NCBI GenBank assembly: GCA_026705465.1
Contig: JAPPAP010000013.1
Span: 7,172 to 71,171, forward strand
Origin: a bacterium
Lineage (GTDB): Bacteria; Actinomycetota; Acidimicrobiia; Acidimicrobiales; Bin134
Direction: 5' to 3'
Length of the DNA: 64,000 nucleotides
The translations under genes were made by a program, and so were the position numbers. How positions within the stretch are numbered: the stretch's first letter is position 1; each line of letters starts with the position of its first letter. The notes beneath the pieces are model-generated. The model worked only from the letters and a program-made list of their open reading frames with translations, did not search any database and was not told the origin of the DNA. Of this stretch, positions 4,700 through 26,364 are shown in pieces.

Positions 4700-5518
4700 T
4701 CAGCCTCGTCGAATGCGGCCTCGCAGCGCCCGGAAGGCCAGTGATTGGGCCAAGATCCCCACCACGGCGATGGCCAACAGCGCCCGCCCCAGCGCCCAGC
4801 CGTCCCACCCGGAGAACAGCGAGCGCATCCCCTCCAGGGCATAGGTCATGGGATTGAACCAGGTGATAGCGGCCAGCCAGTCGGTCATCACGTCGCGGCT
4901 CACCCAGGCGGTGGTCAAGAACATGAAGGGGAAGAACAGCAAGAAGCTGGAGTTGACCGCGCCCGGGTTCCCGGTGCGCAGCGCGATGGCGTAGGGGAAA
5001 CCGGTGAAGGCCAAACCCCACAGCGCCCCGAACAGCACGAACACCACCAGGCCCACCACCCCAGTGGCCCCAAAGCCCACGCCGATGGCGAAACCCAGCG
5101 CGATCACCGGTATGGCCATCACCACGAACAGGGTGAAATCGGCCACCATGAGTCCCAGCAACAGGGCATAGCGGTTGACCGGGGTCATCAGGAGACGGTC
5201 GAAATACCCCTCGGATATGTCAATCACCAGGGCATTGGCCCGGGACATGCCGGTGACCGCGGTCATGATGGCCACCGGCAGTTGAAAGGCCTTGTAGTCG
5301 ATATCGGAGATCACGTCGCCGGCCAGGTTCTGGATAGCCCCGATGGTGACCACCAAGAAGAACAGGGGAATCAGCATGGCGGGGATGATCGCCTCCAGGT
5401 CGCGAGGCAAGAGCCGAAGCGCCCGGCTGGACACTGAGGCCATGTCGCTGAAGAATCCCGATGGGCGGGCTCGGATCACCTCGCGAGCAGGCGGGCTGGA
5501 GAGGGCGGTCTCGCTCAT
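4700..5518 (-). CDS. ABC-2 type exporter permease
   Basis: Several TM segments, NPMTY motif; overlaps the ATPase stop by 4 nt. Confidence 0.9.
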   Translation of the reverse strand: MSETALSSPPAREVIRARPSGFFSDMASVSSRALRLLPRDLEAIIPAMLIPLFFLVVTIGAIQNLAGDVISDIDYKAFQLPVAIMTAVTGMSRANALVIDISEGYFDRLLMTPVNRYALLLGLMVADFTLFVVMAIPVIALGFAIGVGFGATGVVGLVVFVLFGALWGLAFTGFPYAIALRTGNPGAVNSSFLLFFPFMFLTTAWVSRDVMTDWLAAITWFNPMTYALEGMRSLFSGWDGWALGRALLAIAVVGILAQSLAFRALRGRIRRG

Positions 5519-11832: not shown

Positions 11833-11890
11833 AGGCCCACGAACCTAGTGGTGAGTGCAGCTAGGCGGGCATTCACCCCTCGTCACGCGC

Positions 11891-12793
11891 CTAGTTGCGG
11901 GGAAGCCACCGACCGCAGAAGTCTCGGGGCCAGGGCTGGTCGCCTCTGCGGGCATAAAGCAGGCGGGCTCGGGCGTCTTGCTCCTCAGGGGGAGCGTGGG
12001 CCGGATTCCCGACGCCGCCCACCGTTCTCCACGTCCGGGGCTCGAATTGGTAGGCCCCGTAGAACAAACCGTTGGCGCTCTCGGCCCGGTAGTTGTTGGT
12101 GGACTCGCAAAAACGGAGGTTGTGCCAGTGCTGCTCGGTGGGCTCGATAAAACCGTTCTGCACCCGCTCGCGCTCGGCCATGTCGTTGATCCCCGCGATG
12201 TACACCACCCATTCGGCTTCTGCTATCGACTGCTCTGCTTCCCTTAGGCGGGTGTTCAACAAGGGAATGGACCTGTCCAGCCGCCGGGCGCGGGCCTCAG
12301 TTCGCTCCCGCTCACCCGGCACGTTCTCCCTGGCCTCTAGGGCTTCGTCAACCACCTCGGATACTTCCGACAACAGAGCGATTCGCCACAGTGCATCGGT
12401 GGCCTGGGAAACACCGAGAATGAACACCAAGTCCTCCACGTCGCCCCCCGACATGTACTCCTGCACGACCAGCTTCTCAGCCTCCTCCATGAGCAGCTGC
12501 TTGCCGGTGTCCACATCGTCGAGTTTGTCCAGTCGGCCCAGTTCAAGATGCAGTTCGTCGATCGTGCGCTCGAGCGCCCGCTGCAAGTTGTCGCGTGACG
12601 CGATGGCCGCCTCCAGGTCTTGCTGTGCTCGCTCCAGATCGCGCCATGGCGGCATGGCCGCCTGCACTGTCACCGCCGGAGGCCGCTCGTCGCCGCTGTC
12701 GGCCTGGCCGAAGGCGACGCCGCCAGTTGCCGCCATGGTGGCGGCCAGTGCAATAACAAGCACCGCTAGACGACTGCGCTCTTGAGCCCGCAA
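11891..12793 (-). CDS. Secreted coiled-coil protein with C-terminal resuscitation-promoting factor (Rpf) transglycosylase domain
   Basis: Signal peptide, coiled coil, CESTNN..FYGAYQF..TW..EQD..PWP..C; TTG 12793 with GGAG upstream (12805 is an alternative start). Confidence 0.85.
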   Translation of the reverse strand: MRAQERSRLAVLVIALAATMAATGGVAFGQADSGDERPPAVTVQAAMPPWRDLERAQQDLEAAIASRDNLQRALERTIDELHLELGRLDKLDDVDTGKQLLMEEAEKLVVQEYMSGGDVEDLVFILGVSQATDALWRIALLSEVSEVVDEALEARENVPGERERTEARARRLDRSIPLLNTRLREAEQSIAEAEWVVYIAGINDMAERERVQNGFIEPTEQHWHNLRFCESTNNYRAESANGLFYGAYQFEPRTWRTVGGVGNPAHAPPEEQDARARLLYARRGDQPWPRDFCGRWLPRN

Positions 12794-12887
12794 ACCCTCT
12801 CCCAAGTTCGGCTACCCTCGAAACGGGTTTACCGCACTGCCCTACGGGGCGGCAAAACCCCTTTCGGCTGCCTTCAATCTACCGACT

Positions 12888-13868
12888 ATGCCCACGATCC
12901 CTTCAAACGACGCTGGCCCGCACAGTGCGGCTCAACAGATCGACGCCGTCCTCGTCGTGTCGTTTGGCGGGCCGGAGGGGCCCGACGACGTAATGCCGTT
13001 TTTGCGCAACGTGACCCGCGGGCGACATGTCAGCGACAAGCGATTGGCCGCCGTGGCCGAGCACTATCACTTGTTCGGCGGCGCCAGCCCCATCAACCAG
13101 TGCAATCGCGATCTGATCGCCGCTTTGGCCGATGAGCTGGCCCGACGGGGGGCGGGGCTTCCGGTGTACTGGGGAAACCGGAACTGGACGCCCATGCTGG
13201 CCGACACCGTGGCCCAGATGCGCGACGACGGGATTGGCCGCGCAATGGGATTCGTGACCTCCGCCTTCGGCTCCTACTCCGGGTGCCGGCAATACAACGA
13301 GGACATCGAGGGGGCTCGGACTGCGGTGGGCCCCGGCGCTCCGGTGGTGTACAAGCTGCCCCCGTTCTGGGATCGGGAGGGATTCTTGTCGGCCATGGCC
13401 GAGAATCTGGCTGCGGCCCGCCAAGTCGAGCCCACCGCGCCGGTTGTGTTCACCGCCCACAGCATTCCCGAGTCCATGGCCGCGACCGCTCCCTATGTTG
13501 CGCAGCTCAACGAGGCATGCCGCCGGGTGGCGGAGAACACCGGAGCGAGCGAGTGGTCGCTGGCCTACCAGAGCCGCAGCGGCCCGCCCCAAGATCCGTG
13601 GCTGGAACCCGACATCGGCGACGAGCTGGACCGCTTGGCCACCTCGGGGGCCGACGCAGTGATCGTGGTGCCCATCGGCTTCGTGGCCGACCACATGGAG
13701 GTGATCTACGACCTCGACACCGAGGCCCGTCAGCGGGCCGACGCGCTCGGGCTGCGGTTCAATCGAGTTCCCACCGCGGGCACCCATCCCGCGTTCGTGG
13801 GGATGATCGCCGATTTGGTGCTGGGCCCCTTGCCGGCGCCCTGCCCGATCGACTGCTGCCTGCGATAG
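12888..13868 (+). CDS. hemH: Ferrochelatase (actinobacterial coproporphyrin type)
   Basis: SFGGPE, WGNRNW, FTAHSIP, YQSRSG..WLEP, GFVADHME; C-terminal CPIDCC. Confidence 0.93.
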   Translation: MPTIPSNDAGPHSAAQQIDAVLVVSFGGPEGPDDVMPFLRNVTRGRHVSDKRLAAVAEHYHLFGGASPINQCNRDLIAALADELARRGAGLPVYWGNRNWTPMLADTVAQMRDDGIGRAMGFVTSAFGSYSGCRQYNEDIEGARTAVGPGAPVVYKLPPFWDREGFLSAMAENLAAARQVEPTAPVVFTAHSIPESMAATAPYVAQLNEACRRVAENTGASEWSLAYQSRSGPPQDPWLEPDIGDELDRLATSGADAVIVVPIGFVADHMEVIYDLDTEARQRADALGLRFNRVPTAGTHPAFVGMIADLVLGPLPAPCPIDCCLR

Positions 13869-13874
13869 GCAGCC

Positions 13875-14558
13875 CTACTCGCGAGAGCCGATCTCGGTGT
13901 TGATCCAAGCGATCAACTGCGCCTGGTTGCGGGTCTGGGTCAGGATGTCGCCGGGGCCGCTGAAGTGGAACACGAATCCCTCGCCCGACTTCATCGACTG
14001 GATCGAGCGGCCCTCCACGGCTCGGCGCAGCTCGTAGCTGACGGTGTCGGGAAACGCCAGCATATGGCTGGTGTCCACCACCACTGTCTCGCCGGCGGCC
14101 AGCGAGATCACGTCGATGGCCCCGTAGGAGGCCACCACCACCTTGCCGATGCCCTCGGCGTGGGCCATGAACCCGCCCTCGCCGCCGACCAGCGACTTGA
14201 AGCCGCCCCACTTGGTGTCCATTTCCACTGAGGCATCGGAGGCCAGCCAGTTGCCCCGCTCGATGATCCACGACTGCGAGCCGTCCAGATCGATCACCCG
14301 AAGATCGCCGGGCAGCTTGGCCGCCACATCCACCCAGCCGCCCTCCGCCGGGGCGGTGTAGGTGGACACGAACAGCGACTCGCCGCCCAGCACGCTGCGC
14401 TTGAGCCCCTTGAGCACGCCGCCCTCCACCTTGGCCTCCAGCGACAATCCGGAGGAGTGGGCCGACATGGCTCCAGCCTCGACTTTGACCTGTTCACCCC
14501 CGCCGAGGATGCACCGGGCGACGGCGAAACTGGGGGCATGACGAATATCTACCTGCAT
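13875..14558 (-). CDS. TIGR00266/AIM24 family protein
   Basis: EAGAM, GGESLF, GGEGGF, VVDTSH, SGEG..F.GPG; ATG 14558 with TAGGCT 7 nt upstream. Confidence 0.88.
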   Translation of the reverse strand: MQVDIRHAPSFAVARCILGGGEQVKVEAGAMSAHSSGLSLEAKVEGGVLKGLKRSVLGGESLFVSTYTAPAEGGWVDVAAKLPGDLRVIDLDGSQSWIIERGNWLASDASVEMDTKWGGFKSLVGGEGGFMAHAEGIGKVVVASYGAIDVISLAAGETVVVDTSHMLAFPDTVSYELRRAVEGRSIQSMKSGEGFVFHFSGPGDILTQTRNQAQLIAWINTEIGSRE

Positions 14559-14622
14559 GACCGGCAGCCTACCCACCGTCTTTGGCGAACTGGTGGCGGG
14601 CTCGGGCGATCTCGCCGGGCTG

Positions 14623-16191
14623 TTACCCGATGTTCTTGTCCTGGTCTTCCCAGTAGGGCGCCCGCAACTCCCGTTTGAGCACCTTCATGGCCCCGGACAG
14701 GGGCAGCGGCTCGGCCCGGAACTCCACCGACTTGGGCACCTTGTATCCGGCGATGGTCTGGCGGGCGTGCTCGCACACCTCCTCTTCGGTCAGCTCGCTG
14801 TCGGGAGCGGGAACCACCACGGCGTGGACTGCTTCGCCCCAAACCGGGTCGGGGATGCCGATCACCGCCACCTGGGCCACGCCCGGATGGGTGGAGATGG
14901 CGCTCTCCACCTCGGAGGAGTACACGTTCTCGCCACCGGACACGATCATGTCCTTCACCCGGTCGACCAAGAACAGGTAGCCCTCCTCGTCGAGGTACCC
15001 GGCGTCGCCGGTGTGGTACCACCCGTCCCGGAACACCTCGGCTGTGGCCTCGGGCTTGTTCCAGTATTCCGACATGTAGTTGCCGCCCCGGGCGCACACC
15101 TCGCCGATCTCCCCGGTGGGCAGGATGTTGCCGTCCTCATCTTGGATGCAGAGGTTCACGCCGAATACCGGGCTGCCCACCGACCGCAGCTGCGGGCCGC
15201 CGGCCACATGGTCTTCGGCCGACAAAAGCGTGAGCACCGACGAGCACTCGGTCATGCCGTAGCCCTGGAGCAGGTTCACATCGGGCAGGTGCTCGAGCAG
15301 ATGGCTCAACACGGCCTCGGGCATCGGCGAGGCGCCGTAGACCAGCTCCCGCAGCGAGGCCAGCCGCTCGGGCCGGTATTCGGGGTGCTGGATGCACATG
15401 CCGATCATGGTGGGCACCATCACCGTCTGGGTGATGCCCTCGGCCTCGATGAGGTTCATCACTCCGGCGGGGTCGAAGGCGGGAATGGTCACCATCTTGG
15501 AACCAGACGCGGGAATCACCAGCAAGCTGGCCATGGACGCAGCGTGGAACAGCGGCGTCTGGCACAAGAACGCATCATCGTCTCTCGTGCCGCCCAGCCC
15601 GATGGCCACGTGGTACACGTTCAGCATCTCGGCCCGCTGCTGGAGCAGCACCCCCTTGGGCAATCCGGTGGTGCCGCCGGTGTACATGAGCACCACCGGG
15701 TCGTCTTCTTCGGGCTCGGGGGGAACGGTGTTGTCGCCGGCGGCCACCAAGTCCTCGTAGGCCACATCGTGGGGCACATCGCCGGGGCCGATGAGCACCA
15801 CGCTTCGGATGGGGCTGTCGCCGGCGGCCTCCATGGCCTTGACGAATGCCTCAGCGAAGAAGCCATCGACGAAGGCCACCTCGGTGCCCGAGTCCCTCAC
15901 GATGTAGTCCAATTCAGGCCCGGCCAGCCGCAAATTCAGCGGGTTCACCACCCCGGCGCCCAAATAGCAGGCGTGGTAAAGCTCCAGGTAGGAGGCGCTG
16001 TTGAGGGCCATGATGGCCACCCGGTCGCCCTTCTTCACACCCAACTCGCTGCCCATGGCATTGGCTAGCCGGGTTACCCGCTCGCCGTGGGAGGCGAAGC
16101 TGGCCCGGTACGCGCCGTCGACGATCGCCTCTTCGTTGGCGTACCGCTCCACTGCCGGGTAGAACTGCCGGTGATAGATCAGCTCTTTCAT
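14623..16191 (-). CDS. Long-chain fatty acid--CoA ligase
   Basis: YTGGTTGLPKG, GYGMTE, TGD, DRVKDMIVSGGEN. Confidence 0.92.
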   Translation of the reverse strand: MKELIYHRQFYPAVERYANEEAIVDGAYRASFASHGERVTRLANAMGSELGVKKGDRVAIMALNSASYLELYHACYLGAGVVNPLNLRLAGPELDYIVRDSGTEVAFVDGFFAEAFVKAMEAAGDSPIRSVVLIGPGDVPHDVAYEDLVAAGDNTVPPEPEEDDPVVLMYTGGTTGLPKGVLLQQRAEMLNVYHVAIGLGGTRDDDAFLCQTPLFHAASMASLLVIPASGSKMVTIPAFDPAGVMNLIEAEGITQTVMVPTMIGMCIQHPEYRPERLASLRELVYGASPMPEAVLSHLLEHLPDVNLLQGYGMTECSSVLTLLSAEDHVAGGPQLRSVGSPVFGVNLCIQDEDGNILPTGEIGEVCARGGNYMSEYWNKPEATAEVFRDGWYHTGDAGYLDEEGYLFLVDRVKDMIVSGGENVYSSEVESAISTHPGVAQVAVIGIPDPVWGEAVHAVVVPAPDSELTEEEVCEHARQTIAGYKVPKSVEFRAEPLPLSGAMKVLKRELRAPYWEDQDKNIG

Positions 16192-16245
16192 GACGGCAAC
16201 CGTAGCGCGAGACCGAGTGTGCCGGAGCGGGTCGAAGGAGGCGAG

Positions 16246-16734
16246 ATGGACGTCGAATCCACAGTGCGTTGGCTAAAGGATCGAGAGCTGATCAAGGAGG
16301 TTCCCCAGCGGTACGCCCGGGGTATCGACCTCATCGATTTCGAAATGGTGCGCTCCGCCTTCCACCCCGACTGCCAGATCAGCGGGACGGTGATCTCCGG
16401 GCCGCTCGACCCCTACCTGGACTGGACCGAGATGGAACTGCACAAGTTCGAGTCCACCTTGCACTTCATGGGCAACCAGTACATCGACCTCGAAGAGGGC
16501 GCCGATGAGGGTCACATTGAGACCTGGGCGGTGGCCTACCACATGCGCTCGGAGGACTCCGACGTGGGCGACCTCATCTTGGGCCTGCACTACTGCGACG
16601 ACGTGGCCCGCTTCGACGAGGGCTGGCTCATCACCGCCCGCACCGCCCGGCCCCAGTGGGCCCGCGGCGCATTCCCCAAACCCCCCGAAGAGCTGAAGAG
16701 CGACTGGCACGACGTAGACATCCGCCACGTCTGA
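16246..16734 (+). CDS. SnoaL-like/NTF2 family protein
   Basis: YARGID..AFHPD..TLHFMGN..YCDD..W; AAGGAGG RBS. Confidence 0.85.
   Translation: MDVESTVRWLKDRELIKEVPQRYARGIDLIDFEMVRSAFHPDCQISGTVISGPLDPYLDWTEMELHKFESTLHFMGNQYIDLEEGADEGHIETWAVAYHMRSEDSDVGDLILGLHYCDDVARFDEGWLITARTARPQWARGAFPKPPEELKSDWHDVDIRHV
16654..16734 (+). repeat. Copy 1 of 81-bp direct repeat (3' end of the SnoaL gene)
   Basis: 76/81 identical to 18415-18495 by manual alignment. Confidence 0.95.
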
Positions 16735-16758
16735 CCAAACGGCGGCGCCCACACAGAC

Positions 16759-16822
16759 ATCGCCCTCGCCGCCGCTCTCAACGCCCCCTAGTCACCCTCG
16801 ACACCCGCATAGCCCGCGCCGA
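16759..16822 (+). pseudogene. Frameshifted C-terminal remnant of a VapC/PIN toxin
   Basis: Reads IALAAALNAP/LVTLDTRIARA across a 1-nt loss; compare LALAESLSSPLVTADARIARA in 19344-19760. Confidence 0.7.
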
Positions 16823-16990
16823 CAAAAGCCCGATCGGTAGCGGAGACTGCCAACCGGCACGAGCCATGCCTGGGGCATCGACCTCATCGACGCCGACTTC
16901 CGCATCCACCGCTACGGCCCCCACAAATCCCAAGCCTTCACAGTCCACCCCTAACGGTCGGCCGGCACCAACGGGCTTTTGTCGGCGCGG
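16814..16990. repeat. 19-bp perfect inverted repeat pair (16814-16832 / 16972-16990) bounding a 177-bp segment
   Basis: CCGCGCCGACAAAAGCCCG and its exact reverse complement. Confidence 0.9.
16865..16954 (+). pseudogene. Chimeric remnant: SnoaL 5' fragment fused to PIN-toxin 3' end
   Basis: 16865-16890 matches 16312-16337 (22/26); 16887-16954 matches 19184-19251 (66/68); junction at shared TCGA. Confidence 0.85.
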
Positions 16991-16995
16991 TCGGG

Positions 16996-18279
16996 TCAGG
17001 GGCCGAGTGCGGTTATGGGCGCGACTTGTACTCCGTCGGGGCGGCGGTAGGCGGGTCCTGTGGGGGTTATAACCAGCAGGGACGCCATGTTGGCCGCGCG
17101 CTGGCGGGTTGTCTTTTGGTTGAGGCGAAGCAGTGTCTTGGCGGCTTTGTCGATGACGCTGGGGCTGGTATTGAGCTTCACTTCGACCGCGATCCATGTG
17201 CCGTCGGCCCGCTCGACGATGGCGTCGGCCTCGAGCCCGCCGCTGTCGCGGTAGTGGAAGACCATGGCGCGCTCGGCCTGGCTGTAGATGCGGAGATCTC
17301 GCACAGCCAGCGACTCGAACAGACAGCCGAAGGCGGTGTGGTCGGCCATCAGACGCTCAGGGGTGGCTCCGAGCATGGCGGCAGCCAGCGAAGGGTCGGC
17401 AAAGTGCCGCTTGGCCTCTTTCCTCAAGGTGGCCTTCGACCGGAGGCTCACAGCCCAGGCGGGCTGGTCCTCGACAACGAAGATGCGGCGCAAAGCGTCG
17501 AGGTAGGCAGCGACTGTATTGCGGGACGGGGGATGGCCGATGTCCATGTCGTCGGCCAGCTTGGTCATCTTGGCCTCTGTCGCCACGTTTAGGGCGATCG
17601 ACGCCATAAGCCGCCTCACCATGGTGGGGTCGTGCCTCACACCGTTGCCGGAGGGGATGTCTACGCGGGCGATCTCGTTGGCATAGTCGCCCACCGACGC
17701 CAAGGCGTCGTCCTCGCGGTGTCCGAGGCTCTGGGGCCAGCCGCCGGTGCAGATCGCCGAGGCGATGTCTCGCAAACGCACCGCCTCGTCCGGCAAACAG
17801 GAGACGGATTGACCGTCGAACAGCTCCTTCAGCGAGACGACGCCGGTCGACTGCCCCGTTTCCCACAGCGACATCGGCCTCAACAGCACCCGGCTGATGC
17901 GACCGGTGCCGGTGTGGCGGGTGACATCGTCTTGGGGGGCTGCCGAACCGGTGAGTATGAACTGGCCGGGCTCAGGCCGGTCATCGCACTCCCGGCGAAC
18001 CCTGTTCCACAAGTGCGGGGCGTTCTGCCACTCGTCTAACAGCCGGGGCGTGGAGCCTCGAAGCACCTCCACAGGGTCAGCAGAAGCCAGCAGGAGCGCC
18101 GCCTCGTCGTCAAGGCGGACCTCGCTGCGGGCGAAGTGGCGCGCCATCCAAGTCTTGCCGCACCCTCTCACCCCCTCGATGAGAACCGCCCCCCGCCTGC
18201 GAAGCGCGCTTTCGACTTCACGTCCCGCGACGCGGGGCAAATACCCGGGCATTGTGAGCGTGCCAGCCGCCTCAGCCAT
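16996..18279 (-). CDS. AAA_14 ATPase with DUF4143 (PD-(D/E)XK-like) C-terminus
   Basis: GVRGCGKT, LLDEWQ, ILTGSA, EADAIV..VEVK; start at 18279 or 18252. Confidence 0.88.
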   Translation of the reverse strand: MAEAAGTLTMPGYLPRVAGREVESALRRRGAVLIEGVRGCGKTWMARHFARSEVRLDDEAALLLASADPVEVLRGSTPRLLDEWQNAPHLWNRVRRECDDRPEPGQFILTGSAAPQDDVTRHTGTGRISRVLLRPMSLWETGQSTGVVSLKELFDGQSVSCLPDEAVRLRDIASAICTGGWPQSLGHREDDALASVGDYANEIARVDIPSGNGVRHDPTMVRRLMASIALNVATEAKMTKLADDMDIGHPPSRNTVAAYLDALRRIFVVEDQPAWAVSLRSKATLRKEAKRHFADPSLAAAMLGATPERLMADHTAFGCLFESLAVRDLRIYSQAERAMVFHYRDSGGLEADAIVERADGTWIAVEVKLNTSPSVIDKAAKTLLRLNQKTTRQRAANMASLLVITPTGPAYRRPDGVQVAPITALGP

Positions 18280-18310
18280 ATGTCGCCATTCCCCTTATCA
18301 AGAGCATCAC

Positions 18311-18402
18311 AAAGCACTTTGATGACAAACAATAGTGCGTTCTGATGCGTTATGATAACGCGTTCTAGGGATATTTCAAAGTGCGTTCTGGGAGACACGA
18401 AT
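18311..18402. promoter_or_regulatory. AT-rich 23-bp-period direct repeats upstream of the ATPase
   Basis: GCGTTCTR at 18337, 18360 and 18383; degenerate copy at 18314. Confidence 0.6.
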
Positions 18403-18414
18403 ACCGCGGGCCCT

Positions 18415-18495
18415 CAGTGGGCCCGCGGCGCATTCCCCAAACCCCCCGACGAGCTGAAGAGTGATTGGCACGACGTGGACATCCGCCACGTGTGA
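18415..18495 (+). repeat. Copy 2 of 81-bp direct repeat (orphan 3' end of the SnoaL gene)
   Basis: Encodes QWARGAFPKPPDELKSDWHDVDIRHV*; 5 differences from copy 1, all at third codon positions. Confidence 0.95.
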
Positions 18496-18528
18496 CCAAC
18501 TAACGGCGCTTATAGCCAGAGCGGCGAC

Positions 18529-18573
18529 CTGGCATAAGTGGCATAGGTTATGTCATGCCAGTAGTGCTATCTT
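18529..18573 (+). promoter_or_regulatory. TA operon operator/promoter
   Basis: CTGGCAT(18529)/ATGCCAG(18555) inverted pair, nested TGGCATA/TATGTCA; TG-n-TATCTT extended -10 six nt before GTG. Confidence 0.55.
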
Positions 18574-18579
18574 GGTTCT

Positions 18580-18828
18580 GTGCGGACGATGATCATCCTT
18601 CCTGACCACCACCACGCCGAGGCCAAGCGCAAGGCGGCCCATGAGGGCATCTCGCTGTCGGAGTACATCCGCCGCCTCGTGGCCGATGACTTGGACCAGG
18701 CTGGCGCCACAGCCGATCCCTCGACGGTGTTCGGGCTGTTCGACAGCGGAGGATCGAGGATCGCCGACGGAAAACAAGCCATGATCAGCGAGGCGATCGA
18801 CAAGCAGTTTGCCGCCAAAGGCCTCTAA
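18580..18828 (+). CDS. Antitoxin, ribbon-helix-helix type
   Basis: MRTMIIL..EGISLSEYIRR; 3 nt upstream of a PIN gene. Confidence 0.8.
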   Translation: MRTMIILPDHHHAEAKRKAAHEGISLSEYIRRLVADDLDQAGATADPSTVFGLFDSGGSRIADGKQAMISEAIDKQFAAKGL

Positions 18829-18831
18829 GCA

Positions 18832-19251
18832 GTGGCCCCGGTCTTCGTGGACACCAGCATTTGGTACGCCGCAGCCGACGCCGGCGACGCCCACCGCGAC
18901 GTCGCCCAGTCGCTTCTCGCCGAGCGAGCCGGAACTCTGGTCACCAGCGACCTCGTCTTGGCCGAGTTGTGGAACCTGGTGACCGCCCGCACCAACCACA
19001 CCAACGCCAACCGCGTCGTCGCCGCCATCGCGGCGGGCATCGCCCGCATCGAATGCACAACCCCGGCCGACTTCGAAGCTGCCCAAGCAATGCTGAGCGA
19101 CTACCCCGACCAGTCGTTCTCCCTCACCGACCGCACAAGTTGGGCCCTCATGGAACGACTGGCCATCACCCAAGCACTCGCGTTCGACGCCGACTTCCGC
19201 ATCCATCGCTACGGCCCCCACAAAGCCCAAGCCTTCACAGTCCACCCCTAA
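18832..19251 (+). CDS. vapC: PIN-domain (VapC) toxin
   Basis: FVDTS, LAE, SLTDRTS, AFDADF acidic residues. Confidence 0.88.
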   Translation: MAPVFVDTSIWYAAADAGDAHRDVAQSLLAERAGTLVTSDLVLAELWNLVTARTNHTNANRVVAAIAAGIARIECTTPADFEAAQAMLSDYPDQSFSLTDRTSWALMERLAITQALAFDADFRIHRYGPHKAQAFTVHP

Positions 19252-19343
19252 CCCCTGCCCGGCCCGCGCCATGAGGCCCGAGATTCCCGGTCAACAGATC
19301 AAGATTGACCTAGTAGCCGGCCACTAGCAGGGACCGCCTCCGT

Positions 19344-19760
19344 CTACTTGGGGTGGAGGATGGAGAGGATGAGGGGGTGGTCGGGTTGGGCGCGGGCGAT
19401 CCGGGCATCGGCGGTGACAAGGGGGCTGCTGAGGCTCTCAGCAAGGGCGAGGTAGAGGGCGTCGTAGAAGCTGAGGCTGTGGCGCAGCTGCCAGGCGCGC
19501 GCTGCCAGTGGCCCGTGGTGGGGGTGGCGATGGTGGATCGTACGCTCGGCGAGCAGCCGGGCCGACTCGGCGGCGCGCTCATCGAGGTCGCCACGCAAGG
19601 CCATCGAGCGCAGGGCGCTGCCCGCCTCGGCGTCGATAAGGAACGGCGCTGCCCGCCTGCGGTCTCGCAACTGGGCTCGGGCTTGATGTCCGATAGGGCC
19701 CTTGTCGGCCACCGCCGCTACCAGGGCGGAGGCGTCCACCACCACCGCATTCGAGCTCAA
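19344..19760 (-). CDS. vapC: PIN-domain (VapC) toxin
   Basis: VVDAS, DAE, SFYDALY, LVTAD. Confidence 0.88.
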   Translation of the reverse strand: MSSNAVVVDASALVAAVADKGPIGHQARAQLRDRRRAAPFLIDAEAGSALRSMALRGDLDERAAESARLLAERTIHHRHPHHGPLAARAWQLRHSLSFYDALYLALAESLSSPLVTADARIARAQPDHPLILSILHPK

Positions 19761-19990
19761 CGGCGGCCGTTGTCGAGGTCGGTAAGCAATACGTCGATGT
19801 CGAGCTCTGTCCCGTGTGACTGGGCGAAGCGCTCCAACTCACCGAAGTGGGCGTCTTCGTCCGGCTCGCGGGCGAGACGCTCGACCTGCTTTTTCATATA
19901 GGCCTGGATCGACTGGCCCGCCGCCCGCGACCGCCGCCGAATCGTCTCATAGGCCTCCTCGGAAACATCCCGGATCTGGATCGTCGCCAT
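19757..19990 (-). CDS. FitA/VapB-like RHH antitoxin
   Basis: MATIQIRDV..AAGQSIQAY; 4-nt overlap with the toxin; TATTAT 6 nt upstream. Confidence 0.83.
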   Translation of the reverse strand: MATIQIRDVSEEAYETIRRRSRAAGQSIQAYMKKQVERLAREPDEDAHFGELERFAQSHGTELDIDVLLTDLDNGRR

Positions 19991-20082
19991 GCCAGCATAA
20001 TAGCGCTACAGCGCTGAAATGCAAACACTTTGTTTTCTGGCCCGACGAGCGCACCGAAGCGCCAACAGGCAGACTACGGGCC

Positions 20083-21015
20083 ATGAGTGATCGACCAGTG
20101 GCGTTTGTGACCGGGGCGAGCCGGGGGATTGGGAAGGCGTGCTCGGTGCATCTGGCCCGGGCAGGCTTCGACGTGGCCGTGTCGGCCCGCACGGTGCAGG
20201 ACGGCGAGCAGCGGGAGCACTCCTCTACGGTGCAGCGGTCGGACACGTCGCCGTTGCCCGGAAGCCTGTCGGCGACCGCGGCGCTGGTGGCCGAGGCAGG
20301 GGGCGATGCGCTGATCGTTGCCGCCGACCTGCTCGACTTCGACTCATTGGAGGCGGCGGCTGCGGCCGTGTTGGAGCAGTGGGGGCGAGTGGATGTGCTG
20401 GTGAACAACGGGCGCTACATCGGCCCCGGCCACATGGACCGCCTGCTGGACACCCCCATCGAGCTCCTCGACTACCACCTGAAGGCCAACTGCTTGGCTC
20501 CCCTCGTGCTGTCCAAAGCCGTGCTGCCCCAGATGATCGAGCGGGGCGGCGGCACCATCGTGAACATCTCCTCGGCCTCGGGTTATGCCGATCCCACCGA
20601 GGCGGCGGGCGACGGGGGCTGGGGCATGGGCTACGGCATCAGCAAGGGCGCCTTTCACCGGGTGGCCGGGTTCTTGGCCGTGGAGCACGGCAAAGACGGC
20701 ATCAACACCTTCAACGTGCAGCCGGGCTACATCTCCACCGAGCGCATCGCCCAGGACATGGCCCAGTTCGGCTTCGAGGACACCGGCCAGCCCGCCGATG
20801 TGATCGGCGCGGTGGTGGCCTGGCTGGCCACCGATCCCGAGGCCTCGGAGTTGAACGGCACCAACGTGGAGGCCCAGTTCTTCTGCCACGAGCGGGGCCT
20901 GCTGCCCGGCTGGGCTGGTCCCGAGCCCAACACCGCCGCCATCCGCTACGACCTGAGCGGCGCCATTTTGGCCGAGAAGGAAGCTGAGCTTCTGGCCCAG
21001 GCCGCTCAAGAGTGA
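20083..21015 (+). CDS. Short-chain dehydrogenase/reductase
   Basis: TGASRGIG, VNNG, NISS, YGISK. Confidence 0.9.
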   Translation: MSDRPVAFVTGASRGIGKACSVHLARAGFDVAVSARTVQDGEQREHSSTVQRSDTSPLPGSLSATAALVAEAGGDALIVAADLLDFDSLEAAAAAVLEQWGRVDVLVNNGRYIGPGHMDRLLDTPIELLDYHLKANCLAPLVLSKAVLPQMIERGGGTIVNISSASGYADPTEAAGDGGWGMGYGISKGAFHRVAGFLAVEHGKDGINTFNVQPGYISTERIAQDMAQFGFEDTGQPADVIGAVVAWLATDPEASELNGTNVEAQFFCHERGLLPGWAGPEPNTAAIRYDLSGAILAEKEAELLAQAAQE

Positions 21016-21779
21016 CTGACGACGCAGGAGTCGGCGACGGAGCGGCCGGCCGGCTCGAGTTGTGCGCGGTCATGCCGGTGTACAACGAGGAGGAGATCGT
21101 CGGCCAGGTGGCCGAGAGCTGGCTCGAAGTGCTCGACGGCTTGGACGTCGACTACGAGCTGGTGGCCATCGTGGACGGGGCTACCGACGGCAGCGAGCAG
21201 GTGCTGCGGGCGGTGGCCGAGCGCCATCGGCGCCTGGTGGTGGACGTGAAGCCCAACAGCGGCCATGGGCCGACCATCTTGCGGGGCTACCGGCGGGGAG
21301 CGGTGACCGCTGACTGGGTGTTCCAAACCGACTCCGACGATGAGATGCCGGCGGCTTCCTTCGGCGAGCTGTGGGAGCTTCGCCACAACAAAGACGCGGT
21401 GATCGGCATCCGCGCCAGCCGCGACCAGTCGGCCGGCCGACGGGCCATCACCCGGCTGGCTCGACTCACCGCTCGGGCGGCGTTCGGCTGTCGCTTGGCC
21501 GACGTTAACTGCCCCTACCGGCTGATGCGCTCAACGGTGCTGGCTCCGCTGCTAGCTCCCATTCCCGACGACACCTTCGCCCCCAACGTGGCCATATCGG
21601 GATTGCTGTCCCGATCAGGCGCTCGTCTGGCCGAGGTGCCCGTACCCCACCACGATCGCACCACCGGCGTGGTGTCGATCCTCGGTTGGCGGGCTCTTCG
21701 GGCCGCCCTCCGCTCCTTCGGCCAAACCGTGCGCCTCAGCCGCGCCCGCATTCCGAAAATCTCGCTGCCCAACGGCTGA
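21012..21779 (+). CDS. Glycosyltransferase family 2 (DPM/polyprenol-P glycosyltransferase-like)
   Basis: VMPVYNEE, VDGATDGS, NSGHG, TDSD, DVNCPYRL. Confidence 0.85.
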   Translation: MTDDAGVGDGAAGRLELCAVMPVYNEEEIVGQVAESWLEVLDGLDVDYELVAIVDGATDGSEQVLRAVAERHRRLVVDVKPNSGHGPTILRGYRRGAVTADWVFQTDSDDEMPAASFGELWELRHNKDAVIGIRASRDQSAGRRAITRLARLTARAAFGCRLADVNCPYRLMRSTVLAPLLAPIPDDTFAPNVAISGLLSRSGARLAEVPVPHHDRTTGVVSILGWRALRAALRSFGQTVRLSRARIPKISLPNG

Positions 21780-21865
21780 TTTACCAGTAATCGTCACCGC
21801 TGGCGGGTACCGTCTAATCAGGGGTAAAACCCGCACTTCCCCCTACAAAATCCGCTAAGGGAATC

Positions 21866-24286
21866 ATGCCCCCACAATCACAGTTACCGCTCGACAGCGT
21901 GTCGGACGATCGCGACACCGATGTCGATTTTGCCCGCGAGATCGTGCCTGTGCCGGTGGCCGAGGAGATGTCGGAGTCGTTTCTGGCCTACTCCTTGTCG
22001 GTTATCACCTCCCGGGCCATTCCCGATGCCCGCGACGGCCTAAAACCGGTGCAGCGCCGCATCCTCTACTCCATGCTCAACATGGGCATCCGCCCCGACG
22101 GGCCCCACCGCAAGAGCGCCCGGGTCGTGGGCGACACCATGGGCAAGTACCACCCGCACGGCGATGCCGCCATCTACGACGCCCTCGTTCGGCTGGCCCA
22201 AGAGTTCTCCCGGCCCATCACTCTGATCGACCCCCATGGCAACTTCGGCACCCTGGACGATCCGCCCGCCGCCCCCCGCTACACCGAGTGCCGCCTGGCC
22301 GATGCGGCCATGGAGATGCTGGACGAAATCGACGAGGACACCGTGGACCACCGGTCCACCTACGACGGCGAGGGTTCCGAGCCCGAGTACCTTCCCGCAA
22401 GGCTGCCCAACCTGCTGGTGAACGGCACCACCGGCATCGCGGTGGGCATGGCCACCAACATGGCCCCTCACAACCTGCGGGAAGTGGCCAAGGCCATCAG
22501 GCTGGTGATGACCAAGCGCCGGCCCAAGCCCACCGTCGACCAATTGCTCAAGGAGCTGAAGGGACCTGACTTCCCCACCGGAGGCCTGGTGATCGACGCC
22601 GAGGAGGGCGGGCTGCGCCAGATTTACGAGATCGGGCGGGGCTCAGTCCGGATCCAGGCCAAGATGAAGCCGGTCAAGCTGACCCGTAGCCGCAAGGGCA
22701 TCGAGGTTACCGAACTGCCCTACATGGTCGGGCCCGAGAAGGTGGTCAAGCGCATCAACGACCTGATCGTCGACGGCAAGCTGCCCGGGATCCACGACGC
22801 CCGCAACCTGTCCGACCGACACCATGGCCTGCGCATCCTCATCGAGTGCGAACCCCACGTGGAGCCCGAGAAGCTGTACTACGACCTGTTCCGCCTTACT
22901 CCCCTGGAGGAGACCTTCGCGGTCAACAACGTGGTGTTGGTGAACGGCGTCCCCACCACGGTGGGCCTCTACGACCTGTGCCGCCACTACATCGATCATC
23001 GCCTCGACGTGGTGGTGCGGCGCACCCGGCATCGCTTGAGACGGGCTCGAGATCGCCACCACATCCTCGAGGGGCTGATCACCGCGCTGGACAATATCGA
23101 CGAGGTGGTGGCCATCATCCGGGGGTCGGACGATGCCGCCGAGGCCCGACAGCGCTTGCAGGACGCCCTGGCCCTGACCGAGGTCCAGGCCGCCCACATC
23201 CTGGACATGCAGCTGCGGCGGCTCACCGCGCTGGAAAAGCAGAAGATCATCGACGAGCGAGACGAGTTGATCGCCCTTATCGGCGATCTGGAGAAGCTGC
23301 TGGGCTCGGATCAGCGTCAGCGCACGGTGGTGCTGAAGGAACTGGACGAATTGGTGGAGCGGTTCGGGCAGGATCGCCGCACTGAGATCGTGTCCCACGG
23401 AGACGCCCCGGTGTACGAGCCGACTCCAGTGGAGGAACTGACCCCGAAAGCCGAAGGGCCATGTGTGGTCACGCTGTCCACCACCGGCATCGTGGGCCGG
23501 GCCGCGGTGGGGGGACGCCGGCGTTCTCAGTTTGGCCGCCACGACGTGCTGGCCGCATCGGTGGAGGCCGATCTGGACGACACGGTTCTGGCTGTCACTT
23601 CCGGGGGTCGGATCATTGCCTCACCGACTTCGGCCATTCCCGAAGTGTCGGGCCGCAGCCGCGGGGCGGGCGCGTCCGAGGTGTTCGGAACCATTCGCAG
23701 CGAGGGCGTCCTGACCCTGGTCATGGCAAGCAGCGATCCCTTGATCCTCGTGACTGCCTTGGGCACGGCAAAGAGAGTCGACTTGTCTGACGCCGACAAA
23801 GGCCGGGCTACCAAGCAGATCATCAAGCTGAAGCCCAACGACAGGGTGGTGGCCGCCTTTTGCGCTCCGGAGACTTCCGAGCTGGTGCTGGTCAGCACAC
23901 AGAGCCGGGCACTGCGAGTGCCAGTGGAATCTATCCCGGTCCAAGGGCGGGGCGCCTCCGGCGTCGTCGGCATCAAGCTGCGCAATGGCGATCGGGTCAT
24001 CGCCGCCGACGGCGTGAGCGGAGAAGAAGCCGTGATCTGGGCCGACACCGCCGGATTGGTAGATATCATCCCGGTCACCGACATCCCTCCCACTGCTCGG
24101 GGCGGGGTGGGCACGCAGCTGGCCAAAGAGAATCCGCTGGCCATGGCGGTGGTCGCCCCTCGGGGTGAGCTCCTGGCCGAAGTGGACGACAACGGCAAGC
24201 CAGCCAAGACCCCGGTCCCGTTCTCCTGGGAGAACGGCGACGACGACCACCCGAAGATCTTGAGCGTGGGGATGCCCCGATGGTGA
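21866..24286 (+). CDS. parC: Type IIA topoisomerase subunit A (topo IV ParC-like)
   Basis: [22 protein letters not shown] catalytic Tyr; no GyrA-box at the CTD start. Assignment to parC rather than gyrA is inferred. Confidence 0.8.
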
Positions 24287-26364
24287 CCAAGACCACCCGG
24301 GCCCAGGGGAAGAAGGCCGACCTGTTCACACCGCCCAACGGGGGGAATGGCAACGGCAGCTATGAGGCGGCCGACATCGTCACCCTGGAAGGGCTGGAAG
24401 CGGTCCGCAAGCGCCCCGGCATGTACATCGGGGGCACCGGGAGCGACGGGCTCATGCACTTGGTGTGGGAACTCATCGACAACGGCGTGGACGAAGCCGG
24501 CGCCGGATTCGCCACCCGAATCGACGTGACCCTCCATGCCGACGGCTCGGTAGAGGTGTGCGACAACGGCCGGGGCATCCCGATCGACCCCCACCCCACC
24601 AAGAAGGTGTCGGCGCTTGAGGTAGTGCTCACCGAACTGCACTCCGGCGGCAAGTTCGGCGGCGGGGTGTACGGCGCCTCCGGCGGGCTGCACGGGGTGG
24701 GTGCCTCGGTGGTCAACGCCCTGTCGACCCGACTGCGGGCTGAAGTGGACCGCGACGGCGCCACCCGGCAGCTCTGGTTCGTGAAGCAGAAGGCTGGGCA
24801 GCTCGACGGCGACAAGTTCGTCAAGGGCCACAAGCTCCGCCGGGTCCGCTCCACCCGCAAGACCGGCACCCGCATCCGCTTCTGGCCCGACCTCGACTTG
24901 TTCGATCCCGACGCGGCGGTGGACTTCGAGACCATTCGCAATCGTGCCCAGCAGGCCTGCTTCCTCGTCCCCGGGCTGCGAATCAGGCTGGAGGACAAGC
25001 GCCGGGGCAGCGACAACGAACCGGTCGACCTCATCTCCCACGGGGGGCTGGCCGATCTGGTGGGTCACCTGTCGGCCTCCGAAGCTGTCACCGAGGTCAT
25101 CTCCATTCCCGGCGAAGAGGAATTCGAGGAGAAAGTGCCGGTGGACGGAGCCATGACCGTGGTCACCCGACACTGTCAGGTGGACATCGCCATGCGCTGG
25201 GTGAAGGACTTCGAGTCCAAGGTGGCCACGTTTGTCAACACCATCCCCACCCCTCATGGGGGAACCCACCTGACCGGTTTTGAGCGGGCCTTGACCCGGG
25301 CGGTCAACGACAGCCTGTTGGCCGATTCCAAGAAGCTGGCCCGCCTGGCCAAACAGGGCAACGACCGGGCTCAGCGAGAGGACGTGCAGGAGGGCCTGGT
25401 GGCCGCGGTCAAGGTCACCCTGCCCGAGCCGCAGTTCCGGGGCCAGACCAAGCAGGAGCTGGGTACGCCGCCGGTGCAGTCCATTGTCTACAACGTGCTC
25501 AAGGACGGGTTGGAGAGCTGGTTCCAGACCGGGCCCAAGAGCCATGTCACCGCTCTGCAATCCAAGATCGCCGACGCGGTGGTGAGCCGGGTGTCGGCCC
25601 GCCAGACCCTGGAGAACAAGCGCCGGGCCGCGTCCCTGGGCTCCACCGGTATGCCCGACAAGCTGGCCGACTGCCGGGTGCACGGCCCTGAATCAGAGCT
25701 GATCCTGGTGGAGGGCGACTCAGCCGCCGGTCCGGCCAAGGCCGGGCGCAACGCCGAGACCATGGCCATCCTGCCGTTGCGGGGAAAGGTGGTGAACGCG
25801 GCCAAGTCGTCGGTGAAGCAGGTGCTGGACAATGCCGAAGCCCAGGCGCTGTTCACCGCCATGGGGGCGGGCTCCGGCGACGACTTCGACATAGACAAGG
25901 CCCGGTACGGGCGCATCGTCATCTTGTGCGACGCCGATGTGGATGGCAGCCACATCCGCTGCCTGTTGCTCACCCTCATCCATCGCTTCATGCGCCCGAT
26001 GCTGGAGGAAGGAAGGGTTTACGCCGCCCAGCCCCCGCTGTATACCGCCAAGGTGGGTGATCAGACCCACCGGGCGTGGTCCGATGCCGAGCGGGACGAG
26101 ATCACCGCCGAGCTGTCAAAGGGCAATCGCAAGGCCGAGAACATCCGGTGGTCCCGGTTCAAGGGGCTGGGCGAGATGGATACCGACGAGTTGGCCGAGT
26201 GCGCTCTCGACCCCGAAACCCGCACGCTGCGACAGCTCACCATCGACGATGTGAAGAAGGCCGAAGAGATGTTCGAGACCCTGATGGGCTCCGACGTCAG
26301 CCGCCGCAAAGACTTCCTCATCGCCCACAGCGAGCTCGTCGACCGCGACGCCCTCGACTACTGA
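24280..26364 (+). CDS. parE: Type IIA topoisomerase subunit B (topo IV ParE-like)
   Basis: EAVRKRPGMY, ELIDN, GGLHGVG, EGDSA, PLRGK, DADVDG, RFKGLGEM. Confidence 0.8.
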   Translation: MVTKTTRAQGKKADLFTPPNGGNGNGSYEAADIVTLEGLEAVRKRPGMYIGGTGSDGLMHLVWELIDNGVDEAGAGFATRIDVTLHADGSVEVCDNGRGIPIDPHPTKKVSALEVVLTELHSGGKFGGGVYGASGGLHGVGASVVNALSTRLRAEVDRDGATRQLWFVKQKAGQLDGDKFVKGHKLRRVRSTRKTGTRIRFWPDLDLFDPDAAVDFETIRNRAQQACFLVPGLRIRLEDKRRGSDNEPVDLISHGGLADLVGHLSASEAVTEVISIPGEEEFEEKVPVDGAMTVVTRHCQVDIAMRWVKDFESKVATFVNTIPTPHGGTHLTGFERALTRAVNDSLLADSKKLARLAKQGNDRAQREDVQEGLVAAVKVTLPEPQFRGQTKQELGTPPVQSIVYNVLKDGLESWFQTGPKSHVTALQSKIADAVVSRVSARQTLENKRRAASLGSTGMPDKLADCRVHGPESELILVEGDSAAGPAKAGRNAETMAILPLRGKVVNAAKSSVKQVLDNAEAQALFTAMGAGSGDDFDIDKARYGRIVILCDADVDGSHIRCLLLTLIHRFMRPMLEEGRVYAAQPPLYTAKVGDQTHRAWSDAERDEITAELSKGNRKAENIRWSRFKGLGEMDTDELAECALDPETRTLRQLTIDDVKKAEEMFETLMGSDVSRRKDFLIAHSELVDRDALDY

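Follow-up and report, generated by a model that had tools for sequence, protein, structure and literature searches.

We analysed a 64,000-nt stretch of bacterial DNA (the window; G000:C19:7172-71171) and found that the interval between its SnoaL_4 gene (16246..16734, + strand) and its SDR gene (20086..21015, + strand) is a layered mosaic of toxin-antitoxin modules and an ATPase cassette, in which the 3' end of the SnoaL gene occurs twice. The mosaic was evident from a direct repeat of the SnoaL tail, from two layers of cargo, from the position of the interval at an insertion hotspot and from a divergence between the two tails that is of the coding type. The direction of events, the donor and the route of recombination are what we infer from these features. 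The G000 assembly comprises 3.1 Mb in 40 contigs with ~65% G+C, and the runs that contain the stretch are labelled as sponge metagenomes, which places the genus (Acidimicrobiales) in sponge metagenomes. The relatives used for comparison were other species, with one genome per species. For the hotspot survey, 36 congeners were queried with window positions 14623-21015; a wider matching was performed over 61 genomes, for which the strongest matches were listed, with 153 weaker matches beyond them. Open reading frames (ORFs) of the relatives were chosen by our own filter on G+C content at third codon positions (GC3). For the metagenome runs (X1, X2, X3 and X6), the evidence consisted of contigs assembled at k=31, and portions of the stretch uncovered in X2 and X3 were given no weight.

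The SnoaL gene is intact (Pfam SnoaL_4, 2.4e-16) and forms the anchor of the locus. Using blastn and a repeat search, we found that its tail, R1 (16642..16738, +), recurs downstream as R1' (18403..18499, +), a displaced and promoterless SnoaL tail that also lacks a start codon and extends from position -93 relative to the stop codon to position +4 beyond it. The two copies form a direct repeat with 90/98 identical positions and two 1-nt gaps, with blastn E values of 4e-36 within the locus and 1.5e-31 against the whole 3.1-Mb genome, in which no further copy was found by blastn. The initial annotation of the window, made from the letters alone, had reported that the last 81 bp of the gene recur at 18415-18495, which proved correct as part of this longer repeat. 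It had also extended the similarity to about 14 nt past the stop codon, which holds when a 3-nt indel is allowed; the ungapped match beyond the stop is 4 nt (CCAA).

Within the 81 in-frame nucleotides (16654-16734 and 18415-18495), the copies differed at five sites, which were distributed over the three codon positions as 0/0/5. The annotated claim that all five differences lie at third codon positions was therefore confirmed, and the term silent would apply to four of them; the fifth, GAA/GAC, exchanges Glu and Asp, each of which occurs in the intact SnoaL proteins of relatives. Four of the five R1' states were present in the intact SnoaL genes of other species, the exception being AGT. If R1' had diverged in place, without a start codon or promoter, changes would be expected at all codon positions, and they were seen only at the third. 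At a third-position divergence of 5/27 and an even split, ~5 first- or second-position changes would be expected and 0 were observed (Poisson P ~0.007, our estimate). From its pattern of substitutions, R1' looks like a former functional allele, and the earlier proposal to this effect was supported by both the third-position differences (5/5) and the variants shared with relatives. Placement of R1 and R1' among known alleles used 93 sites, at which the nearest alleles were 1-6 nt away, and gave no resolution.

The elements of the interval follow the order R1, R2, ATPase, R1', VapB1, VapC1 (holding R2'), VapC2/VapB2 and SDR, and they form two layers. The older layer runs from R1' through VapBC1 to VapBC2, collinear with the whole interval of the relative G010. 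The G010 interval matched window positions 18441-20115 at 90.05% identity over 1679 nt and contained a single SnoaL tail and no ATPase. Judged from this alignment, the G010 arrangement (SnoaL-VapBC1-VapBC2-SDR) is likely the state that preceded the arrival of the younger block. The younger layer, on the SnoaL side, comprises R1, scraps of VapC3, SnoaL and VapC1, and a PDC-S01-type ATPase with its own promoter.

The younger block (16739-18402) contains a remnant of ~59 nt from the 3' end of a VapC3-type PIN gene (16762..16820, +); compared with the corresponding ends of VapC3 in G008, G022 and G036, it showed 85-88% identity. A 23-nt fragment of the 5' part of SnoaL (16868..16890, +) matched window positions 16315-16337 at 21/23 sites and the SnoaL gene of G021 at 22/23 sites; it adjoins R2, with TCGA(C) common to both, and as a short match it was given moderate weight. 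R2 (16887..16955, +) is a remnant consisting of the last 66 nt of VapC1 and its stop codon, and blastn aligned it with R2' (19184-19252) at 67/69 positions. With the intact VapC1 genes of G001 and G026, R2 agreed at 68/69 positions, about as closely as with R2', 2.3 kb away. The R2/R2' direct repeat had been missed by the initial annotation, whose statement that toxin-antitoxin remnants follow the first SnoaL copy was confirmed by the VapC3-type and VapC1 3' ends. A perfect 19-bp inverted repeat (16814-16832 / 16972-16990) brackets R2 and touches the end of the ATPase cassette, and no other copies of it were found in the G000 genome. As compared with the other genomes, the block between R1 and R1' is best described as a patchwork of scraps from other hotspot alleles together with an ATPase cassette, and not as a discrete element.

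The ATPase gene (16996..18279, - strand) lies between the two SnoaL tails, as initially annotated. It is intact and encodes 427 aa with Pfam matches to AAA_14 (7e-14) and DUF4143 (9e-33). It also matched the PADLOC model PDC-S01 (PDLC04790) at 2e-71, with residues 8-425 covering positions 6-417 of the 422-position profile, that is, over the full length, so that the protein belongs to the phage-defence candidate family PDC-S01 (COG1373). The AT-rich upstream region (18280..18402, -) carries three GCGTTCT boxes, and its outer end is the junction with R1'. The gene together with ~90 nt of upstream sequence (16987-18366) was 86-88% identical to copies in G010, G022 and G009, and the flanks of those three copies were mutually unrelated and absent from G000. 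The occurrence of the same gene and promoter within unrelated flanks indicated that the cassette acts as a compact movable unit. Three ATPase lineages were found in the SnoaL|SDR hotspot, in 5 genomes, and in G000 and G008 the cassette end lies within ~10 nt of a truncated SnoaL tail.

The VapBC1 unit behaved in a similar manner. It measures ~730 bp (~18526-19255) and also occurs at other chromosomal loci in G026, G014, G027 and G019, where the copies begin at positions equivalent to window 18526-18540 and carry no SnoaL piece. This result indicated that the displaced tail is chromosomal and not part of the cassette. In G014, a VapBC1 insert of ~1.25 kb (locus L025, G014:C1:1732500-1738500, positions 2396-3645) separates genes that adjoin each other in G000 (C34:109975-109983). 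Immediately upstream of this cassette is a 45-nt piece of the 5' coding part of SDR that matched the SDR gene of G000 at 44/45 positions and that of G014 itself at 40/43, which indicated that hotspot DNA moves in patchwork fashion between lineages.

Truncated SnoaL tails recurred in G008 (two), G020 and G036, which supported the earlier suggestion that cargo is stacked at this site. In G008, copy c2 extends from -30 to the stop (27/30 identical) and follows VapC1, and copy c3 extends from -56 to the stop (38/56 identical) and follows the G008 ATPase. Copy c2 of G020, also present on metagenome contig L046, spans -157 to -26 with an 18-nt gap and follows the end of a MazEF promoter. The piece in G036 is fused to an integrase and covers -61 to -39 (23 nt, exact). 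The left edges of the five truncated tails in four genomes all differed (-93, -30, -56, -157 and -61); three of ~7 copies or contigs cluster at a left edge of -53 to -61, and later trimming of dead copies is possible. Four of the five tails adjoin a gene cassette at its end, and the remaining one adjoins the G036 integrase. In addition, a tail with its following cassette mirrored the SnoaL-proximal order of another genome: G008 c2 with its downstream DNA resembles G020, and G008 c3 with VapBC3 resembles G022. The copies farther from SnoaL were more decayed. Anchor homology was one-sided, and the displaced modules kept a truncated anchor (R1' in G000, c2 and c3 in G008, c2 in G020 and L046). 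This pattern of tails and cassettes corresponds to the layout of a displacement array, with entry on the anchor side together with a working tail and with the old tail remaining beside the old cargo. The initial description of the array as accordion-like is loosely apt, as what we observed was addition on the SnoaL side and decay farther out.

To place the locus in its genus, junctions were measured in the 25 genomes (G000 included) with SnoaL and SDR on one contig. The SnoaL stop and the SDR start overlap by 8 nt in 10/25 genomes (G028, G033, G006, G035, G003, G034, G019, G017, G029 and G015, the overlaps of G029 and G015 being scored from coordinates). A spacer of 56-99 nt separates the two genes in 4/25 (G026, G024, G032 and G007), and 11/25 carry cargo of 0.7-19.5 kb (G000, G010, G014, G001, G023, G009, G008, G031, G027, G022 and G021), the interval of G000 measuring 3.35 kb. 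SnoaL and SDR lie on separate contigs in six further genomes, and in G025 the ligase gene is located 139 nt from SDR, without SnoaL. The cargo included three VapBC types, MazEF, DUF4143/PDC-S01 ATPases, insertion sequence (IS) elements and tyrosine integrases. In particular, we found VapBC1 and VapBC2 in G010, VapBC1 in G001, VapBC2 in G014, MazEF with a VapC1 tail in G023, and a truncated DUF4143 gene with MazF in G009. G008 carries VapBC1, an ATPase and VapBC3; G022 carries two VapBC3 modules with an ATPase between them, together with a broken ISL3 and the remnant of an integrase; and MazF, IS3 and an Fn3 protein are present in G027. In G031 the site is occupied by a tyrosine integrase along with a repeat-protein gene, and in G021 by the third ATPase lineage with a long tandem array. 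Two more hotspot loci were recovered from metagenome contigs, one of them G020-like and the other with VapBC3. This genus thus has a long-lived hotspot for insertions at the SnoaL|SDR junction, and the comparison across relatives, which the initial annotation had proposed as a check, revealed an interval that is hypervariable across the genus and not invariant.

The reading that we tentatively prefer, at slightly less than an even chance, is 3'-end displacement through homologous recombination anchored in SnoaL combined with an illegitimate distal join, or through the re-integration of a circle founded in this way. DNA of a related strain with a different hotspot allele would have recombined homologously within SnoaL, and an illegitimate join would have connected its far end, formed by the end of the ATPase cassette, to the resident gene 93 nt ahead of the stop codon. 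A new working SnoaL tail would have come with this DNA, and the resident tail with its toxin-antitoxin modules would have been pushed downstream intact. If the resident modules are toxic when lost, selection would favour addition over replacement, and an intact VapBC1 twin in cis would license the decay of the incoming VapC1 copy, R2. This reading is favoured by the differing left edges, the tails abutting cassettes, the block built of scraps, the cassettes found elsewhere without a SnoaL arm, the foreign SDR fragment in G014 and the lack of any integrase trace in the interval. The junction between the ATPase upstream region and R1' falls within 18398-18414, and homology to the upstream region of G022 ends near 18397. 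The X1 and X6 samples each contain several related strains whose hotspot alleles are different, and the coexisting X1 alleles indicated that potential donors were present alongside.

A second diverged gene-end repeat was found in G000 on contig C22 (5556-5938 and 9735-10117; locus L132, 2057-2439 and 6236-6618). It measures 384 nt at 92% identity and consists of the 3' portion of an MDMPI-family gene and the 59 nt that follow it downstream, and 12/19 of its coding differences lie at third positions (our count). The repeat brackets Hypoth_Ymh and GIY-YIG genes and adjoins a ParE toxin gene, a DUF2442 gene and the other DUF4143 ATPase of G000. We counted it in favour of 3'-end displacement as the same kind of scar at a second G000 locus.

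Several observations weigh against 3'-end displacement. The allele argument is built on five sites only. A donor with the order SnoaL-scraps-ATPase was not found among the matches listed for the 61 genomes or in the two metagenome loci, and no clear microhomology was visible where the ATPase upstream region meets R1' when this junction was compared with the upstream region of G022. R1 and R1' share a 35-nt identical block with a GCA codon that is absent from 25/25 relatives. This block fits a shared core or gene conversion, and the private codon indicated that the source lineages were close or that the repeat was partly homogenised. The left edge of R1' (18404-18428) contains a perfect 10-bp inverted repeat with a 5-nt spacer, and this palindromic edge looks like a recombinase core site. 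The metagenome contigs all break in the 35-nt block, and the pairing of the SnoaL body with R1 is known from the assembly alone. Intact tyrosine integrases of one family lie inside the hotspot of G031 and G036, and the G036 integrase frame continues in frame into its 23 exact nucleotides of SnoaL. Finally, surrogate-tail integration operates in this genus and gives the R1/R1' signature, as described below for G063.

These integrases are the basis of the foremost alternative, which we consider less likely but a serious competitor. An integrative element would have carried a surrogate SnoaL tail, R1 being borne by the element and R1' being the displaced chromosomal tail, with the integrase since lost or acting in trans; the crossover would have taken place in the 35-nt block or at the palindrome, and the 1.76-kb unit would possibly be non-autonomous. 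Elements of this kind are e14 and phage 21 in E. coli icd, which carry a surrogate 3' end of the target gene. G063 provided an example within the genus (locus L048, G063:C1:1703000-1719000), where the 3' end of an ABC-transporter ATPase gene is occupied by a 5.8-kb element that encodes a 68%-identical integrase. On both sides this element is bordered by a direct repeat of 303 nt (7098-7400/12877-13179) whose differences are 22/22 synonymous third-position changes; the repeat homology ends exactly at the stop codon, and the integrase stop adjoins that of the target gene. This element indicated that an integrase route can yield the same signature as R1/R1'. G000 shares with e14, phage 21 and the G063 element a direct repeat of a gene tail, a functional copy derived from incoming DNA and silent or third-position differences. 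It differs from e14 and phage 21, which have an integrase beside att and one fixed core, in left edges that vary among genomes and in the lack of an integrase between the repeats.

Further support for the integrative element came from the palindromic edge and the 35-nt block, and from integrase remnants that adjoin SDR in G022 (aa 293-341, 82%), G001 and G024. The left edges of G008 c3 (-56) and of an X1 variant contig (~-53) lie near that of the G036 fusion, an X3 contig reads like an attP junction, and G000 encodes five tyrosine recombinases and one resolvase, all on other contigs; three of the tyrosine recombinases, on C1, C10 and C17, are non-Xer. The integrase family of the hotspot is present in up to 6 copies per genome. 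Four integrase elements (L030, L049, L050 and L048) contain a gene of 60-nt and 279-nt tandem repeats upstream of the integrase, and this common repeat-protein gene indicated one family of integrase plus repeat-protein elements at different sites.

In contrast, no integrase gene or remnant was found between the two repeats of G000. No recombinase domain was detected between 16735 and 18402, neither the SnoaL-SDR interval nor the 26 ORFs selected by GC3 from window 1-36000 gave a recombinase or transposase domain, and tblastn (E<=1) found no integrase remnants in the hotspots of G000, G008, G010 and G020. We also found no tRNA gene within 10000-26000, no Rfam match within 14000-22000, no attC-like repeated element at the cassette borders (repeat search and border sequences) and no repeats >12 nt flanking the G031 integrase island; no dif-like (XerCD) motif was seen in the border sequences, for which no formal motif search was made. 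The ATPase promoter precedes R1', where G036 has the 3' end of an integrase. The -93 edge lies outside the -53 to -61 cluster, and the -30 and -157 edges fit no single core. The unit is made of scraps of hotspot cassettes, and the whole unit was not found elsewhere in the G000 genome or among the matches listed for the 61 genomes. The closest homologue of the integrases, that of G063, is not at SnoaL, so that the family is not bound to the SnoaL site, and the single family member of G000 is 43% identical and lies on another contig. The term integrase-free in the initial annotation thus held for the G000 interval, by both domain searches and tblastn, and failed for the hotspot as a whole. Its proposal that cassettes arrive from relatives by anchor homology gained from the hotspot, the stacking and the allele-like tail and lost the integrase-free premise beyond G000. 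As to the possibility that the repeat is a standard att site, the cases of G031, G036 and G063 touch on it, and none of the integrases was shown to use the -93 repeat of G000.

An improbable alternative is a phasing error in a multi-strain assembly. The real chromosome would then resemble G010, with the SnoaL body running into the R1' variants and on to VapBC1, and the source of the ATPase block would be another strain or a separate or tandem molecule. In X1, the likely source sample, at least two additional SnoaL alleles are present at depths of 21-28. The SnoaL allele of the metagenome-assembled genome was at a depth of 27.6-31.5 in X1, R1 with the scraps at 30.4, the ATPase at 43.2 and R1'-VapBC-SDR at 38.5-44.3, and the part from the ATPase to SDR had a depth of 43-44. 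These values agree with the assembled order if a second strain has only the right part in common, and by our bookkeeping they agree with the other pairing as well, both pairings balancing the depths across the 35-nt block in which the k=31 contigs break. An X3 contig with a depth of 3.7 joins 18333-18414 to 16654-16835. An excised circle or a tandem copy would produce such a junction, and so, equally, would a graph artefact across the 35-nt repeat at low depth; we regard it as a lead only. The phasing error is opposed by an X1 contig (16926-18444) that runs from the ATPase upstream region across into R1' and takes in 12 edge nucleotides specific to R1', so that a join through a shared k-mer does not account for it. 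Similarly, an exact contig (16811-18181) from X3, a different sample and study, bridges the scraps, R2 and the ATPase gene. The ATPase block was at chromosomal depth in X1, X2 and X3, unlike a non-replicating circle. The X3 join is a single contig and can arise by drop-out of competing k-mers. Moreover, an ATPase between diverged resident copies was also found in the single-contig genome G022 (687 nt, 91.6%).

We considered the X3 join as proof of an excised circle and rejected it, as it is a single contig, at a depth of 3.7, assembled with k=31 through an exact repeat of 35 nt. Other contigs revealed variant arrangements. One X1 variant has an extra C within 16762-16820 and joins the VapC3-like end to SDR (16820>20082, depth 28.3), another X1 contig joins 19265 back to 18443, and X6 contigs set the ATPase beside VapB1-like sequence in another order.

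We give a slender chance to the idea that the DUF4143/PDC-S01 ATPase cassettes are self-mobilising, homing-like genes. DUF4143 is classed in the PD-(D/E)XK superfamily in the accessible text of PMC3424549, and a domain of this type would cut at or near the SnoaL tail. Repair from a cassette-bearing allele would, with equally slender probability, copy the cassette together with its flanks and leave diverged duplications on both sides. This idea drew on the three ATPase lineages in the hotspot, the cassette ends near tails, the layout of G022 and the second ATPase beside a gene-end repeat on C22. Least probable of all is a local duplication (replication slippage, or a long target-site duplication at ATPase insertion) followed by divergence in place, for although direct repeats flank the ATPase cassette, G022 has the same layout and both tails carry the private GCA codon, it predicts the ~5 first- or second-position changes that a start-less, promoterless copy did not show, and it conflicts with the R1' variants that are alleles in the intact genes of other species, with the marginally closer match of R2 to the VapC1 genes of G001 and G026 than to R2', and with the VapC3 and SnoaL 5' scraps, which it leaves unexplained.

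The stacking of new cargo ahead of older cargo is a known style of genome growth, found here at an unusual anchor. It resembles integron arrays in its entry at one end, in the movement of older cassettes away from that end, in the common toxin-antitoxin cassettes and in the compact gene-plus-promoter modules. Unlike integrons, the locus has neither IntI nor attI, with no integrase in window 1-36000, no attC-like borders were found, and the cassettes have their own promoters. The accessible text of PMC5361080 (citing Jackson 2009, Poole 2011 and Koskiniemi 2014) describes the orphan modules of Rhs and contact-dependent inhibition (CDI) systems and the effector-immunity arrays of the Vibrio cholerae type VI secretion system (T6SS) as displacement arrays, for which anchor homology with illegitimate recombination is proposed. 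As far as that text goes, those arrays and the present locus have in common a conserved upstream anchor, entry on the anchor side, older modules that keep a truncated 3' piece of the anchor, kept modules that are harmful to lose and a process in which no integrase is needed. In the arrays so described, the anchor is a toxin gene and the displaced tip contributes to the cargo function, whereas the anchor here is an unrelated SnoaL-like metabolic gene, the cargo consists of type II toxin-antitoxin modules and a defence-candidate ATPase, and integrase elements of relatives share the site.

Islets of toxin-antitoxin genes between core genes, as presented in the accessible text of PMC13617665 (with Hayes and Van Melderen 2011 cited there), are small spots of several modules with high turnover and pseudogene remnants. 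The linked recombinase genes are lost from them ('streamlining'), spread through homologous recombination in the core genes on either side is proposed, and toxin-antitoxin systems rarely cluster with defence systems. The G000 locus agrees with that account in having several modules, remnants and no mobile-element gene, and it differs in that a PDC-S01 ATPase shares the spot in 5 genomes. A duplicated allelic end of a flanking gene is not mentioned in that text as a footprint of acquisition. We found nothing in the literature under the genus name 'Poriferisodalis', and in the accessible text of the literature naming 'DUF4143' no treatment of such a hotspot was found. The entry of toxin-antitoxin or defence islets without mobile-element genes is usually argued from presence and absence; here a readable scar was left, in the form of a displaced flanking-gene tail that still bears allele-type variants. 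The same genus offers both candidate routes, surrogate-end integrase elements and integrase-free mosaics. The locus therefore bears on whether addictive modules bias hotspots to stacking over replacement, and on whether polymorphic-toxin-style displacement arrays are a general growth mode of defence islets. For annotators, it is a warning not to dismiss as noise the short gene tails without promoters that occur in such islets, as these tails are markers of history.

The gene and domain assignments of the initial annotation held, and the remaining features of the locus were as follows. The left flank is a conserved AMP-dependent ligase gene (14623..16191, -; Pfam AMP-binding, 4e-78), and the ligase and SnoaL genes of congeners were 83-93% identical to those of G000. 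Downstream of R1', VapB1 (18580-18828, +) is intact and has no Pfam match of its own, and its G008 orthologue gave weak RHH matches. VapC1 (18832-19251, +; PF01850, 3.7e-13) is an intact PIN gene that starts at 18832 after the VapB1 end at 18828, and the two genes are the intact toxin-antitoxin pair that had been annotated behind the second SnoaL copy (18580-19251). On the opposite strand, VapC2 (PIN, 19344-19760, -; PF01850, 1.8e-11) and VapB2 (FitA-like RHH, 19757-19990, -; 27.1 bits against a cut-off of 27) are intact and overlap by 4 nt; VapB2 also matched NCBIfam TA_anti_VapB_Myco, below the family cut-off. The acidic residues of the PIN domains, assigned by eye, are D7/E45/D100/D118 in VapC1 and D9/E45/D99/D118 in VapC2. 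From these matches, VapBC1 and VapBC2 are predicted to be type II toxin-antitoxin modules with a PIN toxin and an RHH antitoxin. The SDR gene (adh_short, 2.9e-33) is the conserved right flank of the hotspot.

We examined the idea that the stretch upstream of SDR in G000, G010, G014, G008, G023, G009, G027 and G026 is the oldest, decayed SnoaL tail and rejected it. Local alignment gave 10-11 nt with a score of 9, and MAFFT placed a conserved CCGACGAGC ~45 nt before the SDR ATG under SnoaL codons with a random middle part. The conserved CCGACGAGC may be a regulatory element of SDR. The GCGTTCT boxes upstream of the ATPase (window 18300-18400) are spaced ~25-30 nt apart; all are kept in G022 and G009 and two are kept in G010, and from this conservation they are possibly an operator.

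Other genomes presented further arrangements at the site. In G022 (locus L029), two intact VapBC3 copies (2658-3342 and 4775-5459) flank the ATPase and are 91.6% identical over 687 nt, with differences over the three codon positions of 2/1/5 in VapB3 and 12/10/25 in VapC3. The insert of G021 (locus L039, G021:C1:2903500-2923000) measures 19.5 kb, and its DUF4143 ATPase (906-2072, -) lies 82 nt after SnoaL. Beyond the ATPase, this insert consists largely of ~1.75-kb tandem units, with three equal 577-codon frames of no clear Pfam family. In the more distant species G032 (L036) and G007 (L037), a perfect direct repeat of the stop/start overlap, 13-18 nt long, lies on either side of the 56-nt spacer, and the sequences of these flanking repeats differ between the two species.

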